This document shows, piece by piece, positions 20,901 through 29,842 of a stretch of DNA of 64,000 bases. Position 1 is the stretch's first letter. Each line of letters begins with the position of its first letter. This DNA comes from Promethearchaeota archaeon. Lineage in GTDB: Archaea > Asgardarchaeota > Heimdallarchaeia > Hodarchaeales > Hodarchaeaceae. Position numbers and translations under genes: made by a program. The stretch is taken from the NCBI GenBank assembly GCA_048938105.1, contig JBHLMN010000018.1, forward strand, positions 1-64,000, in the 5' to 3' direction. The notes below the pieces were generated by a model. That model saw only the letters and a program-made list of their open reading frames with translations, ran no database searches and had not been told where the DNA came from.

Positions 20901-21280
20901 TCAAAATTCTCTCAGCAACAGGCCTAAAGTAATCAAATGCTTGGGATATACCCTTGTCTTCATCGGCCCTGATTTTAAGATCAAGGGGAATTTGACCTCT
21001 AAGTTCCGTTTCAAATTATTGGGCCAATTTGAGCACCTCCCTCTCTCTAAATAGTGTGTATCCTTCCACACTAAGGACAAATAAAGGAAGACATGTTTTC
21101 AATAATTCCGATTACTGGTCAATCCATTTTACGTGACATAACCAAAGATTTACTAGTGTCAAGAAGATTTACCTCTTGTGTGGAGTGGTGACAATCACGA
21201 CTCCGGCCATATCAGGAATCATTTGCATGATAGAAATAGCTTCATCTCCAGTTCCTGGCGGCATATCGAAAACTAATATC
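20901..21280 (-). pseudogene. mrp: Mrp/NBP35 (ApbC) Fe-S carrier ATPase remnant
   Basis: Own translation: [32 protein letters not shown], then a frameshift, then [35 protein letters not shown]. The N-terminal Walker A half is missing. Confidence 0.85.
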
Positions 21281-21601
21281 TGATTTCTTTTCAAACAACC
21301 GTTGTTAATGAAAATAAGGATCGAGGCAATAAACAGAAGATTAGATTAAAGAATAAGAATTTATGGTTTCTAATCAGCTGTGGTTGCTTTTAATTCTTCT
21401 AACCATTTGAAAGAAGATAATTTTGGAGCCATTAAAAGGGAATATATTACTCAAGGAATCCGAGTGTAATATTGAAAGAAATATTTGTAAATTTGAGGGG
21501 ATTTAATAAATAATTTCATCAAAAAAAGATAAAGAGAATTATTTTTAATAACCGAAATCGCCTCAGGCCATCATTTGTCAAAATTAATTCAAAAATTACA
21601 T

Positions 21602-23044
21602 TCAGAAATAGGTGTCTTTTAGTTCAACACCCCATTTCACATGATCTACAGAGCTCGCAATTTTGTAATATATTTTGATGCCAGAATTCCTCTTGATTAA
21701 ATCGATTCTTCGAGCGAATGATTTGATCCAATAATTAGGCATTTTAAGGAAGCCAAAATAATAATTAGGTTTATTATCTTCTTGGAAAAAGATATCACAC
21801 TTTGGAAAGCAGAGGAAATGTTGAATCCAAGGAATTTGATGGTCTTCGGCTGAAATGAAAAGGAAAACTGTCAAATCTAAACCAATGTTGAAGTATTGAT
21901 TCGTTTTTACTAAAAGGTTTTTTTCACCATATTCTTGAAGTCTTTTTGAGATCTCCGGTGCTGAAACTTTGATAGCCTGACTAAACTGTTTTATACTGGA
22001 AAAACTCCCACGGGTTGTAAGAAAATCAAGGATTTTTACATCTGCAGGAGTAAGGGATCGAAAGAGATCAAATGTAGGTTTAAGAGGAAAATTAATATCT
22101 GGGCTAGGAGAAATTAAGGAAACGTTCGTATCACTGTGAAGAAGTGAAACATTCGTATCACTCCAAGTCAATTCTCCTGATGATAGTCCAGTTAAGTTCC
22201 AAGACGAAATTCTTGTATTTAATGGATGAGAAATCAAGATCTCAAGATTATCGTGAAGAGTAAAGAATTCTTTTGATTTCTGATAAGGAATCTGCACAAT
22301 ACTGAAATTTCCTACAGTTAAATTAGTTGAGAGAAGCAAGTATTTTTCATAACGTTTTGGAAATAAGTTGGAATGAACAAGTAAGTTTGTCTCGTAACCT
22401 AGTCTACCCATATCTAGAAAGTGGAGAGATTGAACCATTTGTAATAAACGAATTGTATTCATTCTTCGTAAAACAGTCCTAGAAGAGATATTTAGATGTT
22501 TTGCAAATTCTGTTTGAGTTGGTTGCTTATAATATACTGGATTGAGCTTTTCCAAACTCTGAAAAGCTTTTAAAAGTGATATATATAATTCATCAAGTGG
22601 AACTGTAAAGTTCGTTAAGATAGGTATAAGGAATTCGAAAAGAGCTTCTTTATCCCCCTTAATCTCTTTTGTTAAGAGCTTCTGAATGAAAAATTCAAAG
22701 TTTTGCTTATTATGAAAGCAAATCTCATATGTAACCAGTTTAAGAGGAAATAAGTAACTCCCCCTTTTCCTCCACTTTAAAACAATGGAAGCATAACTTT
22801 TAAACCAGCTTTCATTAAATTCTAAGGTTTTGTCACCTTGAAATTTGTTGTAGAATGGAAGAATATGAGACTCCAATATATCTTTAGTGAAATCCATGGT
22901 ATCTTCTAGTGTAAAATTGTTGGCTCTTTCATGGATGTACATCCAAATATTGAGAAAATCAAATACAAATTCCTCTATTTTATAATCTTCCGGGTTTTGT
23001 CGGAAATTATCAAGAATTGAAGGAATTTGTTTAGGGAGGGGCAT
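21602..23044 (-). CDS. Transcriptional regulator with two HTH + Lrp/AsnC-like units and an N-terminal helical domain
   Basis: HTH1 TQTEFAKHLNISSRTVLRRM, followed by LDMGRLGY; HTH2 SIKQFSQAIKVSAPEISKRLQEY, followed by FNIGLD. Confidence 0.75.
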   Translation of the reverse strand: MPLPKQIPSILDNFRQNPEDYKIEEFVFDFLNIWMYIHERANNFTLEDTMDFTKDILESHILPFYNKFQGDKTLEFNESWFKSYASIVLKWRKRGSYLFPLKLVTYEICFHNKQNFEFFIQKLLTKEIKGDKEALFEFLIPILTNFTVPLDELYISLLKAFQSLEKLNPVYYKQPTQTEFAKHLNISSRTVLRRMNTIRLLQMVQSLHFLDMGRLGYETNLLVHSNLFPKRYEKYLLLSTNLTVGNFSIVQIPYQKSKEFFTLHDNLEILISHPLNTRISSWNLTGLSSGELTWSDTNVSLLHSDTNVSLISPSPDINFPLKPTFDLFRSLTPADVKILDFLTTRGSFSSIKQFSQAIKVSAPEISKRLQEYGEKNLLVKTNQYFNIGLDLTVFLFISAEDHQIPWIQHFLCFPKCDIFFQEDNKPNYYFGFLKMPNYWIKSFARRIDLIKRNSGIKIYYKIASSVDHVKWGVELKDTYF

Positions 23045-23105
23045 TTGATGCCGAAAAAAAGGGTAGTATCATTTAAAAACCTGTCTAGAGAATATATTCG
23101 AATGT

Positions 23106-23136
23106 GCAAAATAGCAAGTTATTTGCTAATTTTTGC
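23106..23136. promoter_or_regulatory. Palindromic operator candidate between the regulator and the peptide ORF
   Basis: GCAAAA-TAGCAA-gttat-TTGCTA-at-TTTTGC in the 140-bp divergent intergenic region. Confidence 0.5.
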
Positions 23137-23184
23137 CTTAACCTAAAAAAAAACCGAAAAAAAAGATAAGGTGTGTAAAAAACA

Positions 23185-23337
23185 ATGAGAAAAGTTAGAA
23201 ATCGTGAAAAAAGAATTAATGTTGAATTAACATTATTAAAAATACTCCCCTGGTTATTCCTTATATTACTCTACATTGCTGCATCTTCATTGGGAACTGC
23301 TGTTTCAGCTGGACCAATTGGTAGTCTTGTAGACTAG
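23185..23337 (+). CDS. 50-aa signal-peptide-only ORF (putative precursor of the secreted peptide GPIGSLVD)
   Basis: Below the ORF-track cutoff. MRKVRNREKRINVELTLLKILPWLFLILLYIAASSLGTAVSA-GPIGSLVD; AGGTG RBS-like sequence upstream. Confidence 0.6.
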   Translation: MRKVRNREKRINVELTLLKILPWLFLILLYIAASSLGTAVSAGPIGSLVD

Positions 23338-23904
23338 GAATTTAAGATAGGGCCATAATTCCAATTTAATAATCAGGTATAGATGAATTATTAAGTGGTC
23401 ATCAAAAAAGGAGTTTCTGCGCTCATCTTAGAGCAAAAATCCGACAAAATCAACTATTATTTCCACAATGGAGGATATCCCCAAAATTACCCCTAGGATC
23501 GCATGTGACACTATATCTCAATGAAATAGGTTATTCATATATAACTGTAATCCTCCCAGGGTAATATATGACCTTTTAATGGCCCCATCACTGTTTCAGA
23601 CAACCTTAACTAATTGAATAGGTATATATTTGTTTCTCTTCAACTCTGATGTATCTTATTTTCTAACAATACTCGAAAATAATCAGAAGTTTTTGTGACA
23701 ATGGGGGGAAATTATTTACATTAATTTATTCTAAAGGTTTCTGTCGTTTTTTTGAAAATCATACCTTGTAATTCATTTGACTAATTACAGACACATTTTT
23801 TTGAAAAGTGTCACTTCTGAGTAACTTTTCATTATATCAAACTGTGTTTTTTAATTTCTTATTCAAAGTGAAGTCATCAAAAGACACAAGGATGTAGGAA
23901 AAAA

Positions 23905-24174
23905 GTGCAAGTGACTGATCAATTTGGCATCAAAAAATCTTTAGATCGAGTTTTCCAGTTATTATTCATGTCTACGAATCTTTTTTCTTCATTTGAGCTT
24001 CGAGATAAACTCTGTCTACTCCAAATGAACAAAAAGTATAATTTTTCTGACCCTGAACTCAAACAACTACTCATCTACTTTCTTGACTTGATCGAGTATT
24101 TTTCTCATGAAAGGTTGCTATTGATCCAGGATCCTGTAGATAGTTCTCGATATGCACTCACTGGAGGTTTTTGA
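23905..24174 (+). CDS. Small hypothetical protein, possibly winged-helix
   Basis: 89 aa; helices followed by an LLLIQD...RYALT wing-like ending. Confidence 0.55.
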   Translation: MQVTDQFGIKKSLDRVFQLLFMSTNLFSSFELRDKLCLLQMNKKYNFSDPELKQLLIYFLDLIEYFSHERLLLIQDPVDSSRYALTGGF

Positions 24175-24640
24175 CATGTACTCAGAAATTATTACAGTTC
24201 GAAAAGGAGAACCAAATCGCAAAAATTTGGAGCATGAATCTCTATTGGAAGAATCTTTTTTACAATCCAATGAGATAAAAACAGTAGAGGTTTCTGAAAG
24301 TGATGTTCACCGTTTAGCAGATCGTACTCTTCTCTTACTTTCCTTCAAAGATACTTCTACTCAAAATTTACGCTATGTTCTTAATGTACTTGGTATTCGC
24401 ACATTAGAAGAGAAAAGGAATATTCTACAAGAAATTTATCGGTTAATTCGGGAGGGTATTGTGTATGTTCCTAGAGGGCTTCCTCAATTAATCGATCAAG
24501 GTTCTCGTCTTGATATTAACAGCTCTTTAGAAGCCGAAAATATCGATATATGCCTCCTTCGTCCCTATGAGGAATTAATTAGAGAAATTCAGAATGAAAT
24601 AACGGAGCTAAATACTACTACGGTTATTAGAAAACCATGA
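24152..24640 (+). CDS. Hypothetical protein, paralogue of 25144-25527
   Basis: About 58% identical (62/106, ungapped) to the 127-aa ORF. The start is probably the ATG at about 24176, after GGAGG. Confidence 0.75.
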   Translation: MHSLEVFDMYSEIITVRKGEPNRKNLEHESLLEESFLQSNEIKTVEVSESDVHRLADRTLLLLSFKDTSTQNLRYVLNVLGIRTLEEKRNILQEIYRLIREGIVYVPRGLPQLIDQGSRLDINSSLEAENIDICLLRPYEELIREIQNEITELNTTTVIRKP

Positions 24641-24675
24641 ATAACCATACCAGTAAATTAGAAAGATGAGCAATA

Positions 24676-25110
24676 ATGATTCGTAATGGTCTCTCACTTA
24701 AGGATAATGACGAGCAGCGAGAAGTTAATCAACTTAAGGAATATCTGAAATTAGCCAATGGTACCTCTGAACATGTTTTAATTGCTAAATGGCGGTGTAT
24801 AAAACACATGCAATCGGATTTAGAATTACCCTCTCAAACTCCGATTGACAAACTCGTTAAGCTTTACAACAATCTTGAAGAGATTCGGAAGGCCTTTAAT
24901 TACCAAATCAATGATTTTAGTCAATTAAATGAACTTTTTCATGATGTTACCGCTGTTAGGGATAGATTAAACTTCCCAAAAGACTATTCGACAACTGATG
25001 TCTTGTCTCGACTCAATTCTGATCTAATTCCTTTCTTAGGGCTTAAAGAAAACTCATTACTCAAGCAATTATTGCTATTATACCAACCAAATCAATTACA
25101 AATCATGTAG
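24676..25110 (+). CDS. Hypothetical helical protein
   Basis: 144-aa ORF in an operon-like arrangement. Confidence 0.65.
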   Translation: MIRNGLSLKDNDEQREVNQLKEYLKLANGTSEHVLIAKWRCIKHMQSDLELPSQTPIDKLVKLYNNLEEIRKAFNYQINDFSQLNELFHDVTAVRDRLNFPKDYSTTDVLSRLNSDLIPFLGLKENSLLKQLLLLYQPNQLQIM

Positions 25111-25143
25111 GGATATCATCGACGTCTAAAGGCCGAAATTCCA

Positions 25144-25527
25144 ATGAGAACGAAGAAGAACATATTAAAAGAAATAAATCTAACTGAGGAGGAACGAACT
25201 CAATTAACGGATCGTGCTCTCATTTTATTATCATTTAAAGATACCGAAAGGCAAAATCTGCAATTTCTGCTTAACATTCTTGGGATTCAAACACTTAAAG
25301 AAAAAGAAAACATTTTACGGGAAATTTTCAGGCTTATTCGTGAGGGGATTGTCTATGTTCCACAAGGCCTAGCGAAATTAATTGATGAAGGAACTCTATT
25401 TAATATCAACAACCCTGAAAACATCAGAGACATAGATTTATACCTTCTTTGTCCTTATGATCAACTTATCAAGGAAATTCAAGATGAGATCATCAATTTA
25501 AGAGCTAAAGCAGCTTCACAGCAGTGA
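25144..25527 (+). CDS. Hypothetical protein, paralogue of 24152-24640
   Basis: Shared core DRxLxLLSFKDTxxQNL...RLIREGIVYVP. Confidence 0.75.
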   Translation: MRTKKNILKEINLTEEERTQLTDRALILLSFKDTERQNLQFLLNILGIQTLKEKENILREIFRLIREGIVYVPQGLAKLIDEGTLFNINNPENIRDIDLYLLCPYDQLIKEIQDEIINLRAKAASQQ

Positions 25528-27264: not shown

Positions 27265-28512
27265 ATGCTCTCAACAGTGATTCGCTCATATCCTAACCAA
27301 CGCACAGTATCCTTGGGAATTGTTACTCATAGGGGAGCAGCTCATGATACACTCGCGGGTACCACCCAAGTTTTGTTACAAACTATGGCTCGAGGGACAA
27401 TAGATCATAATGAAGTTGAAATCGCTAGATTAATTGATGGAACAGGTGGCTCGTTGTTTTCTTCTACAGAAAAAGATTTCTCTATTATTGGTGCTCAAAT
27501 TCAACCAAAATACGCAATACGAACTTTAGATCTTCTGTTCGAAATGATCTCTCACCCTACCTTAAATGAGTCACATTTTCTTGTTGAAAAACAGAATTTA
27601 ATCCAGATTTTCTATCAGGTTCAGTCGAATCCAATACGAAGGATGATGATTTTTGATGCAGATAAAGCCACTTTTGGAGAGGATCATCCCCTTGGCCGAT
27701 CCCAAATTGGAACACCTGAATCCTTAGAAAGACTCACAAAAGACGATCTTCAAAAAGCTCATCAGAAATTATTGATAAATCCCTGGGGATTTGCGGTGGG
27801 AGCCATTTCAGAAAGTCTCCATAAACAAATAGACCATAAATTAACTGAATTTCTTTCAAAAAGCAAATCAAAAGCTCAAAAGCTTCAACCATTTCCTCGA
27901 AGAGACATTCCACCAAATAATCTTATTGCTTCATCTGCAAAGGAAGAAGGGAATGTATATCTTTGTGTTAACATCATAACTGATGCAAGTCCCAGTATTA
28001 TAGGCTTAGCACGTTTTTCCAGTGCTCTTCTAGGAGAATCCTTTGGCTCAAGGATGTTCTCAATTCTAAGAGATCAAAAAGCATTTGGTTACATTACTGG
28101 ATCGACTTTGAAGCTTCTTGCTGAATCTTTAGTACTACGTTGTTACATGGAAACATCTCCAAAGAGAACAGAAGAAGCAATAGACTCATTAATAGAGTTA
28201 CTTACCGATATAAGTAGAGAGAAGATATCAGAAGAAGAATATAATACAACTCGTAATTTTATCTTAGGCCAATTAGATTTATCTTTTGATGATTCTCGTT
28301 CAACAGCTTCTCGAATTATAAATAGGGTAGTCCATGATCTTCCACCAAACATTGAGTCAGGATATAAGGAAATTGAAACAGTAACTTCAGAAGGTATCAA
28401 CTCTTGGTGGAAGAAAACTCTCCTTCGCCCTGAAAATGTTAGCTTAGCTATTGTTGGTGACATAAATCCTGCTCAGATCCAAGAAAGTTGGAAAAAAAAT
28501 ACTTATACTTAA
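27265..28512 (+). CDS. M16B peptidase, non-catalytic subunit
   Basis: M16 fold. The HXXEH position reads QVLLQT; the SRMFSILRDQKAFGY (R/Y pair) motif is retained. Confidence 0.85.
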   Translation: MLSTVIRSYPNQRTVSLGIVTHRGAAHDTLAGTTQVLLQTMARGTIDHNEVEIARLIDGTGGSLFSSTEKDFSIIGAQIQPKYAIRTLDLLFEMISHPTLNESHFLVEKQNLIQIFYQVQSNPIRRMMIFDADKATFGEDHPLGRSQIGTPESLERLTKDDLQKAHQKLLINPWGFAVGAISESLHKQIDHKLTEFLSKSKSKAQKLQPFPRRDIPPNNLIASSAKEEGNVYLCVNIITDASPSIIGLARFSSALLGESFGSRMFSILRDQKAFGYITGSTLKLLAESLVLRCYMETSPKRTEEAIDSLIELLTDISREKISEEEYNTTRNFILGQLDLSFDDSRSTASRIINRVVHDLPPNIESGYKEIETVTSEGINSWWKKTLLRPENVSLAIVGDINPAQIQESWKKNTYT

Positions 28513-28528
28513 TAATAAGGGAATATCA

Positions 28529-29842
28529 ATGCTGACTGATCAATCTGAATCTGTAATATTAGACAATAATCTAAGATTGCAACTAGTCTCGATTCCGGGG
28601 GGAAAAACGACCTTAATCGCAGTTGGTCTCCACGCTGGCGCAATGTATGAGGAGGGATTTGGCCCTGGATCAAATGATGGGATCAGTCATTTTATAGAGC
28701 ACATGTTCTTCAAGGGAACCCCGACTAAAACCACAAAACAAGTTAATGAGGCGTTCACGCGCTTAGGGGCAGATTTAAATGCATATACAACCTATGATCA
28801 TACAGCATATCATGCAAAAGTCCCTAGTCGCAATTTACATAAAGCTATTGAAATCTGGAAGGAATTGTTAGTAAATAAGAACATTGATTCAACAGAATTC
28901 AACGCAGAGAAAGAAGTCATTTTACAAGAGATACAATTATATGCGGATATGCCAGAATTTGATGTTAATTTCACAGTTCGGAAAAAACATCTCTCAGGCA
29001 CAGCACTTGAACATAACATCCTTGGAACTCTTGATTCTGTAGCAGATATTACACCTGATATGATGTTCAATTATATTGAGCGTTTTTATTCCTTTGATAA
29101 TGCTATTGTAACTTTAGTCGGAGGTTTCGATTTAGAAGCAGAAAAACAATATTTAACCTCAATTTTTAGTGATCCGATCGCTCATCCACGAAAACATCCA
29201 ATTTACCCTCCAAATGTCGATTATCTTTCTCCAAAAAATGTTAAAAGTAATATTTCCTTTTACAAAAACGAAATATCAAAACCCCTTTCTTATATTGCTT
29301 TAGCTTGGACTTGCCCTGGCATTCGATCGACAGATTTTTTTCCATTACTGTTACTAAATACATTCATTGGAAATTCACGCACATCGTTATTATATAGGGA
29401 AGTAATTAGCAAAGGAATAGCCAGTATCTGTCGTTATGGATTTGAAGCTCTCTATGATGTCTCAATAAGTAGTATTCTCTTCGTAACACCTCCCAAAAAG
29501 ACAGAAGAAGTCTTTCAAAAGGTTATTGACCTAATGATTACTATTCGTGATCTGAAAATTTCCCCTCAAATCACTAACACGCTGAAAGAAGAAGTTTGGG
29601 GGTCGTATATTTCTGAAATCGAAGATCCTAGTAATTATGGGATTGATCTTCTTCAAAAGTATGTTAAATTTCACCAACCCCTCTCTGTAAAGGAATTTCA
29701 GAAAGAAATATTTCAAATCAATCCAGAAGATATTCAGAATGCTAAAGATAATTTATTAGAGAACTTCAACATTACTGTTTATGCAACTGGTACAGTTCCA
29801 CCTAATTGGGAACCTCAATTCCCAAAACACGGGCCCTGGTAA
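28529..29842 (+). CDS. M16B peptidase, catalytic subunit
   Basis: GISHFIEHMFFKGT, LNAYT and EKEVILQE motifs. Confidence 0.92.
   Translation: MLTDQSESVILDNNLRLQLVSIPGGKTTLIAVGLHAGAMYEEGFGPGSNDGISHFIEHMFFKGTPTKTTKQVNEAFTRLGADLNAYTTYDHTAYHAKVPSRNLHKAIEIWKELLVNKNIDSTEFNAEKEVILQEIQLYADMPEFDVNFTVRKKHLSGTALEHNILGTLDSVADITPDMMFNYIERFYSFDNAIVTLVGGFDLEAEKQYLTSIFSDPIAHPRKHPIYPPNVDYLSPKNVKSNISFYKNEISKPLSYIALAWTCPGIRSTDFFPLLLLNTFIGNSRTSLLYREVISKGIASICRYGFEALYDVSISSILFVTPPKKTEEVFQKVIDLMITIRDLKISPQITNTLKEEVWGSYISEIEDPSNYGIDLLQKYVKFHQPLSVKEFQKEIFQINPEDIQNAKDNLLENFNITVYATGTVPPNWEPQFPKHGPW

Follow-up and report, generated by a model that had tools for sequence, protein, structure and literature searches.

Divergent genes for an Lrp/AsnC-like regulator and a 50-residue micro-protein form a conserved cassette in Hodarchaeales-type Asgard archaea: a candidate for exported-peptide signalling

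We analyzed a stretch of 64,000 nt from a Promethearchaeota archaeon of the family Hodarchaeaceae (assembly GCA_048938105.1, contig JBHLMN010000018.1, positions 1 to 64,000), here referred to as the window, and within it a pair of divergently oriented genes. The first, here named REG, is an open reading frame (ORF) of 480 aa with an ATG start on the minus strand (21602-23044), whose product is predicted to be cytoplasmic. The second, here named pep, also starts with ATG and encodes 50 aa on the plus strand (23185-23337, stop codon included); it represents a gene for a pre-peptide or a micro-membrane protein. According to the ORF list both genes are separated by a spacer of 140 bp, and the divergent arrangement was thus found as described in the original prediction, which had read the pair as a peptide-signalling module. 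Our comparative analysis demonstrated that REG and pep constitute a self-contained, co-inherited two-gene cassette that is specific to Hodarchaeales-type Asgard archaea. The function which we favour, with a confidence that comes close to probable without reaching it, is exported-peptide signalling. REG would control the divergent promoter, and the peptide would be exported, cut, released as an 8-19-mer and would feed back on REG.

The small ORF is a real protein-coding gene. Among five orthologues the ratio of non-synonymous to synonymous substitution rates (dN/dS) for residues 1-42 was 0.05-0.16, with dS values of 0.35-1.2, and the pep frame is therefore under purifying selection. For the tail of 8 residues the ratio ranged from 0.3 to 5.8 among the five orthologues of this subclade. 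Furthermore, a profile of the pep family, built without any sequence of this genome (leave-one-genome-out), matched 2 out of its 33,955 small ORFs with E values of 7e-23 and 3e-9. Both matches adjoin REG paralogues and the next-best match had an E value of 0.13. The generic architecture of pep was present in only 49 of the 14,883 ORFs of 40-70 aa in this genome.

Short hydrophobic ORFs are abundant in AT-rich DNA, as the 33,955 small ORFs of this genome illustrate, and in an AT-rich promoter region a frame such as pep might be open by chance. We consider this hardly credible and rejected it, because homologous ORFs occupy the same position beside dozens of paralogous regulators, the dN/dS of pep is about 0.1 and the leave-one-genome-out profile matched just two ORFs, both of them adjacent to a regulator.

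In the public databases 23 homologues of pep with a size of 50-68 aa were found. The named ones are listed as 'hypothetical protein' in metagenome-assembled genomes labelled Hodarchaeales, Hodarchaeota or Heimdall (several NCBI records). Searches of pep against Pfam and NCBIfam gave no match above the cut-off, and its look-alikes in the ESM Atlas were unnamed clusters only, at a chance-level score of 0.82. The concern that the ORF could be the truncated part of a longer secreted protein found no support, as a longer homologue was not detected among 8,000 scored candidates, which by the search tool's own statement is weak evidence.

To follow the distribution of the pair, 60 related genomes were searched using the 480-aa protein as query. 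All 20 genomes of the same genus contained REG; multiple copies were frequent, with a maximum of 12 in a single genome. The pairing was then assessed for 52 distinct REG genes, each full-length and preceded by 600 nt or more of sequence; they derived from 20 species of the genus and from this genome, and their mutual identities were 20-73%. About 40 of the 52 possessed their own divergent gene of ~50 aa, the start of which was located 60-250 nt away. Of these, 37 were flagged by a script and three (L005, L020 and L069), just under its hydrophobicity cut-off, were added. Eight of the 12 REG genes without a pep gene of their own belong to tandem REG arrays holding a single pep gene. As a separate observation, arrays of 3-5 REG paralogues with a single pep per array were found in L032 (G019:C234), L033 (G001:C14) and L036 (G005:C14), leaving 'orphan' regulators.

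The second REG copy of this genome, which is only 21% identical, is likewise accompanied by a divergent pep-like ORF. This pair is located on contig C14 (13761-16000; L002, L048) and its tail is of the proline-rich type starting with D-P. The neighbourhood of the pair varied: unrelated housekeeping genes follow pep in L040, L042 and L046, and in L041 the pair lies on a different side of a syntenic block.

Outside the genus, both other genera of the order gave weak matches to the profile of the REG family, with almost none in the rest of the class; the counts of positive genomes were 20/20 (genus), 2/2 and 1/59 (rest of the class). L091, from another genus of the order, carries a divergent 68-aa ORF of the pep design, and in GCA_016839955.1 two distant REG members are accompanied by called divergent genes of 49 and 50 aa. 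Worldwide, the REG family comprised 191 representatives at E<=0.001 among 1.84 billion sequences. The original prediction had proposed to ask whether homologous regulators come with such ORFs. Down to an identity of ~20% and across three genera-level groups, they nearly always had a divergent, signal-peptide-like ORF of ~50 aa with a differing tail.

The AlphaFold model of REG (32 homologues) reached a predicted local distance difference test score (pLDDT) of 89.5 and a predicted template modelling score of 0.84. It consists of a helix-turn-helix (HTH) at residues 177-200, a beta-alpha-beta domain at 204-282, a linker, another HTH at 333-374 and a second domain of the same kind at 378-462. In both domains the predicted order of strands and helices fits that of the RAM domain (beta-alpha-beta-beta-alpha-beta). 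The first module with its RAM-like domain corresponds to residues 171-285 (22190-22534, minus strand) and has a recognition helix of the form S-x-R-T-x-x-R-R. The second module, again HTH and RAM-like domain, corresponds to residues 331-480 (21605-22054, minus strand). In the HTH alignment both recognition helices kept the canonical S-x-x-T-x-x-R-R type; the Pfam matches to HTH_AsnC-type and HTH_24 were below threshold.

In the Foldseek search REG matched the fused Lrp-like protein NirDL best (4ch7, E 1e-8), and dozens of Lrp/AsnC regulators came next with a probability of about 1.0. The structural alignments comprised 142-158 residues and span whole Lrp chains. When the REG profile was compared with PDB sequences, the matches to Lrp/AsnC regulators ranged from E 5e-6 to 2e-3 and covered both modules, among them PH0140 (5e-6), the AsnC family (2e-4) and PH0061 (1.3e-3, residues 150-235); residues 322-451 matched Lrp/AsnC regulators as well. 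REG combines the AsnC-type HTH with the C-terminal RAM domain that characterize this family. Judged from model and profiles, it is a fused Lrp/AsnC pseudo-dimer with an added N-terminal domain, a fused and extended form that was previously undescribed. The expectation of a double-HTH, Lrp-like regulator of the non-RRNPP kind with an extra N-terminal helical domain was borne out, since fold and profile matches point to Lrp/AsnC and not to tetratricopeptide repeats (TPR). Binding of REG to DNA is predicted, and the hints of it are indirect, namely the conserved oriented box and the dyad of the promoter region described below.

The added domain comprises residues 1-170 (22535-23044, minus strand). 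It is helical with one beta-hairpin and had a pLDDT of 85 when modelled alone. Among 48,161 chains searched with VIA-align the highest Z for this domain was 4.4, and Foldseek gave no match at E<=0.001. AimR was found with a Z of 3.2, among rows of chance level. The residues F30, W34, I37, P63, P100, Y106 and E107 are conserved, and the domain is a candidate for a sensor or partner-binding domain.

The shared 140-bp spacer was almost invariant in six orthologues, with the exception of ~28 bp in its mid-region. A TATA-like T/A octamer (23072-23079, minus strand) is located ~28-35 nt before the start of REG and was invariant in the six orthologues. In 14 of 23 intergenic regions a similar element, 'CATTTAAA', lies about as far from the start of REG. 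The octamer is probably the REG promoter, and the leader would then be short or absent. On the other side, the motif AGGTG (23169-23173, plus strand) is found 11 nt before the pep start, inside a stretch of 19 nt that was invariant in the six orthologues; it may be a Shine-Dalgarno-like or a core promoter element. Searching the region 22900-24000 against Rfam gave two matches only, both with E near 1.

Next to the octamer an asymmetric box was identified (23083-23105, plus strand) with the consensus CTAGAGAA, five variable nucleotides and TCCG, pointing to pep. Of 21 intergenic regions of the window type (clade I), 20 contained it, always in the same orientation, and 0.011 occurrences per 140 nt would be expected from its frequency in the genome; these sequences had been inspected before the pattern was defined. 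A matrix trained without this subclade ranked the box of the window 7th in the 5.85-Mb genome, and between 19 and 28 kb of the window it was the sole site. An asymmetric bipartite box would fit REG, because the fused protein carries two different HTH modules.

The original prediction had focused on a palindrome between the genes. This inverted repeat (23108-23117 / 23123-23132) is located midway between them and has 10-nt arms that are 90% complementary with a gap of 5 nt. In the window sequence alone it did not exceed chance (p about 0.2 versus shuffles). However, across six orthologous loci 8 of the 10 pairs had changed on both arms and yet were complementary, a value that none of 500 shuffles reached and that was far lower in slid controls. 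The sequence of the dyad is hypervariable and its symmetry is conserved. At other paralogue loci dyads with unrelated sequences were located in roughly the same place, and for several of them p was <=0.015. The role of the palindrome as a sequence-specific operator became less likely, since it varies between orthologues with nearly identical recognition helices. For the same reason we would rather regard the box as the best candidate for the REG operator. The palindrome may play a structural role, or there may be a second determinant.

Additional top-scoring copies of the box (CTAGAGAA...TCCG) in this genome were located at C63:191104, C4:172460, C14:195177-195238 and C53:125770. Two adjacent copies precede a gene of 189 aa, and one is close to another Lrp-like tandem regulator gene. 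These copies could be more targets, or the motif could be common to related regulators.

The product of pep can be divided into three segments. Residues 1-19 (23185-23241, plus strand) form a conserved basic head with 7 K/R among the first 10 residues. In the family alignment an R-x-R motif is followed by an acidic residue and K-L-L-P; R5 and R7 are present in at least 90% of the members, the acidic residue is located near position 14 and K19 is near-invariant. Residues 20-42 (23242-23310, plus strand) comprise a hydrophobic core of 14 residues, with an invariant P22, and a small-residue region rich in Ser/Gly/Ala that leads to V-S-A at residues 40-42. Residues 43-50 (23311-23334, plus strand) represent the tail GPIGSLVD, the putative released peptide. 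This layout agrees with the earlier description. No charged residue was found from residue 20 to 49. According to the positive-inside rule the head is predicted to be cytoplasmic.

Signals for the Sec pathway and signal peptidase I have a positive n-region, an h-region of 7-15 residues, small uncharged residues at -3/-1 and no proline at +1. By inspection pep has a Sec-like layout, namely the K/R head, the 14-residue core and V-S-A followed by G-P, or in a second clade G-[IVM]-A followed by D-P. The n-region, at 19 aa, is unusually long for Sec, and in some distant members the site is poor. With small residues at positions -3 and -1 and glycine or a charged residue at +1, the junction resembles a cleavage site of signal peptidase I.

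The second-clade junction G-[IVM]-A-D-P was found at the exact end of the hydrophobic part in 10 or more loci, and the tails of this clade are proline-rich and 9-19 residues long; the other pep copy of this genome is a member. Within the whole family the tails comprise 8-19 aa, are rich in Pro/Gly and differ among all paralogues within one genome. Between other orthologue pairs the identity of the tail compared to the hydrophobic core was 10/10 vs 16/22, 9/10 vs 12/22 and 8/10 vs 13/22. Since the tail can be better conserved between species than the core, it is under sequence-specific selection and does not behave as a neutral linker.

Four other signal types were considered by eye and discarded for pep. 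A class III (prepilin) signal would require a K/R-G/A cleavage motif ahead of the core, which was not seen; for a lipobox, Cys was found in some tails only; R-x-R is present instead of the R-R of a Tat motif; and the hydrophobic part is not C-terminal as in PGF-CTERM.

Residues 20-42 could be either the h and c regions of a signal peptide or a membrane anchor, and a membrane-anchored micro-protein is a serious rival to the secreted peptide. In that case pep would stay uncleaved as a single-pass protein with its head in the cytoplasm and its tail outside. The head would bind REG, perhaps via the N-terminal domain, and tether or inactivate it at the membrane, and the tail would be a small sensor or would be trimmed. 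Membrane-bound anti-activators and small membrane regulator proteins act in this way in bacteria. The strong conservation of the head (R-x-R, acidic residue, K-L-L-P), the purifying selection on residues 1-42, an uncharged stretch that can span the membrane and the poor cleavage motif of distant members would all be explained. Additionally, the extra domain of REG, for which no known fold was found, needs a partner or ligand, and a strict one-to-one pairing of genes is typical of interacting proteins. On the other hand, the conserved G-x-A / D-P junction is placed exactly at the end of the hydrophobic part, in several lineages conservation is higher in the tail than in the membrane segment, which is unexpected for a mere anchor, and an outside tail of 8 residues is very short for a sensor. 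We regard an uncleaved pep as possible but rather doubtful.

For the preferred exported-peptide reading the following sequence of events is proposed. REG most likely binds the asymmetric box in the shared promoter region, each of its two non-identical HTH modules contacting one half, and it would control the transcription of pep and probably of itself. The 50-aa product would insert into the membrane with the basic head inside. The single archaeal signal peptidase I would probably cut behind the small residues of the junction (V-S-A in this pep, G-[IVM]-A in members of the second clade) and release a Pro/Gly-rich peptide of 8-19 residues starting with G-P or D-P (GPIGSLVD in the window), which may serve as a lineage-specific signal. 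In the most economical circuit the peptide would return and alter the activity of REG, as in Sec-dependent RRNPP systems. The return may proceed via one of many Opp-type transporters, or the signal may arrive indirectly. This genome has one gene for an archaeal signal peptidase I and ~17 OppA-type binding proteins, which is permissive only.

Several observations weigh against this proposal. The 19-residue head of pep is conserved far beyond a generic Sec n-region, and this over-conservation of the first 20 residues suggests that the head itself may have a partner. The uncharged segment, with its 23-30 residues, would suffice as a stable membrane anchor. The GCA_016839955.1 members have S-T-V and then I/T-P-V-P at the junction, which makes a poor site for signal peptidase. 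Opp genes are not linked to the cassette, and roughly a quarter of the REG genes have no pep gene of their own. As the best structural match of REG, the siroheme decarboxylase NirDL, is an enzyme, the Lrp fold is no proof of a regulator. Furthermore, dN/dS was 0.07-0.17 in all six REG domains and in none was it raised as for a receptor that tracks a fast-changing ligand; direct peptide sensing is slightly weakened by this lack of a diversifying domain. Co-folding of REG with the full 50-aa product (both as alignments) gave a median of 0.68 and one unrelated control gave 0.51, a result that we counted neither way. The signalling module of the original prediction is supported in part, namely in its conserved pairing of regulator and putative pre-peptide, with about 40 of 52 regulators paired, and is complicated by the over-conserved head and the anchor-length uncharged stretch.

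Downstream of pep, three small genes encoding 89 aa, 162 aa and 127 aa (the last a paralogue of the 162-aa gene) are located at 23905-25527 of the window. The families of the first two, here named p89 and p162, had no Pfam or NCBIfam match above the cut-off. In many genomes their members are again located close to REG-pep pairs, sometimes on one side and sometimes on the other. In this genome a p162-family gene on another contig (C41:99339-99752) has a high-scoring copy of the box just upstream, and p89/p162 genes are for this reason possibly part of the REG regulon. The gap of 570 nt between pep and the 89-aa gene is poorly conserved apart from a non-coding island of ~40 nt (23547-23586) that is kept in four species and has no Rfam match.

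The pair on contig C14 is followed by a 124-aa gene without known family and by a 146-aa longin-like gene (Fuz_longin_1, E 2e-4, below cut-off), and the pairs of GCA_016839955.1 are followed by a gene of ~100 aa and an Arf-like small GTPase. A link of the cassette to Asgard GTPase/longin modules is possible.

These neighbours bear on a further explanation without any feedback of the peptide. REG could be the dedicated transcription factor of pep and sense another ligand, e.g. an amino acid. The product of pep would then act elsewhere, e.g. as a surface or membrane effector, as a signal for a different receptor or as an inter-cell antagonist. The RAM domains of Lrp/AsnC regulators classically bind amino acids, and the PDB matches of REG include structures with L-Leu, L-Ile, L-Phe and Gln. 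The absence of a diversifying REG domain would be expected as well, and the high-scoring box copies elsewhere in the genome, including the one upstream of the p162-family gene, hint at a wider regulon; p89/p162-family, longin-like and Arf-like GTPase genes are often nearby. However, every paralogous REG keeps a private pep gene with a distinct tail, which is more than a shared amino-acid sensor needs, and we consider this explanation unlikely.

At the other end of the locus, a 41-aa ORF on the minus strand (21169-21294) matches part of a 266-aa P-loop protein (GKGGVGKST). In a related genome (L046, 11697-12497) the gene for the latter adjoins the pair in intact form, and the short ORF looks like a pseudogene remnant between a coiled-coil gene and REG.

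A pair of genes for M16B (insulinase-type) peptidases is located ~4 kb downstream of pep (27265-29842 of the window). Judged by motif, one is an inactive alpha-like subunit lacking H-x-x-E-H and the other, which has H-F-I-E-H at residue 54, an active beta-like subunit; a signal peptide is absent from both proteins. The peptidase pair is syntenic in the orthologous loci and absent from most other REG-pep loci. It may be a lead to peptide processing or represent mere synteny.

The peptidases could also suggest that pep encodes a ribosomally made, post-translationally modified peptide with a conserved leader and the variable tail as its core, where the winged-helix modules of REG would recognize the leader and not DNA. 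The pattern of conserved leader and variable core and the presence of the M16B pair in the window and in orthologues would be in agreement with this. Nevertheless, no modifying enzyme is conserved beside the pair and the neighbours are unrelated at most loci, the 'leader' includes a hydrophobic segment of membrane length, and the M16 pair is missing at most loci. This possibility appears very improbable to us.

Known archaeal quorum signals are small molecules and, to our knowledge, no gene-encoded peptide signalling system is known in Archaea. In the literature that we searched we found no archaeal peptide-receptor pair, no gene-encoded archaeal peptide signalling and nothing on this family. 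It is conceivable, although we would not expect it with confidence, that Hodarchaeales run multiple private peptide channels, each consisting of a Sec-exported, Pro/Gly-rich peptide of 8-19 residues and its own cytoplasmic receptor-regulator of the Lrp type. If true, this would be the first genetically encoded peptide communication between cells in Archaea, with a receptor fold that has never before been tied to peptide sensing, in a group which is among the closest archaeal relatives of eukaryotes. The Lrp/AsnC family would gain a new class of ligand or a new mode of membrane tethering. With up to 12 regulator copies per genome the cassette offers testable handles on cell-cell or envelope signalling, namely a synthetic 8-13-mer, the 23-bp box and a soluble regulator. 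Even if pep is an uncleaved membrane protein, two undescribed protein families and a compact regulatory module have been identified.

Among known systems, NirDL / AhbAB siroheme decarboxylase (4ch7) is the only solved protein with a fused double Lrp-like architecture and resembles REG with a template modelling score of 0.57 by target. NirDL / AhbAB functions in the synthesis of heme d1 / heme b, and a genome usually contains one or a few copies of it. In contrast, REG is only 12% identical and occurs with up to 12 paralogues per genome, accompanied by private pep genes. No heme genes were noticed among the REG neighbours; the observed likeness to NirDL concerns the fold.

The Lrp/AsnC (feast/famine) regulators such as PH0140, PH1519, LrpA and Ptr2 share with REG the order of HTH and RAM, by profile as well as by fold. 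Archaeal autoregulators and activators of the Lrp type have their site just upstream of the TATA box, and the likely REG site is placed in the same way. REG differs from them in carrying two modules in one chain, preceded by a 170-aa domain without fold relative, in its predicted asymmetric site and in being paired with a peptide gene instead of genes of amino-acid metabolism.

The streptococcal systems Rgg-SHP and ComR-ComS also consist of a divergent regulator gene and a gene for a small hydrophobic peptide (SHP) with a shared promoter region, and their mature signal is C-terminal. However, SHPs do not carry a classical Sec signal and depend on an intramembrane protease for their cleavage. 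Their receptor is of the TPR type, and neither gene is homologous to REG or pep.

In the Sec-dependent RRNPP systems of Bacillota and phages (PlcR-PapR, Rap-Phr, NprR-NprX, AimR-AimP) the gene of a cytoplasmic regulator adjoins a gene of ~40-50 codons, which encodes a signal peptide and a short C-terminal segment, the signal of 5-10 aa. As in the case of REG-pep, many paralogous pairs with different peptides exist per genome, and the leader is conserved and the peptide part variable. REG-pep differs in being archaeal, in the proposed direct release of the peptide by signal peptidase without a pro-region and in the unusually long and conserved head. The RRNPP receptor has helical repeats of the TPR type, which enclose the peptide, whereas REG, according to the AlphaFold model and the fold searches, combines a double Lrp/AsnC unit of two HTH and RAM modules with a new helical domain of 170 aa. 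Because the defining TPR receptor is absent, we place REG-pep outside the RRNPP/Rgg families. By analogy the cassette appears closest in its logic to the Sec-dependent RRNPP systems and in its gene arrangement to Rgg-SHP.

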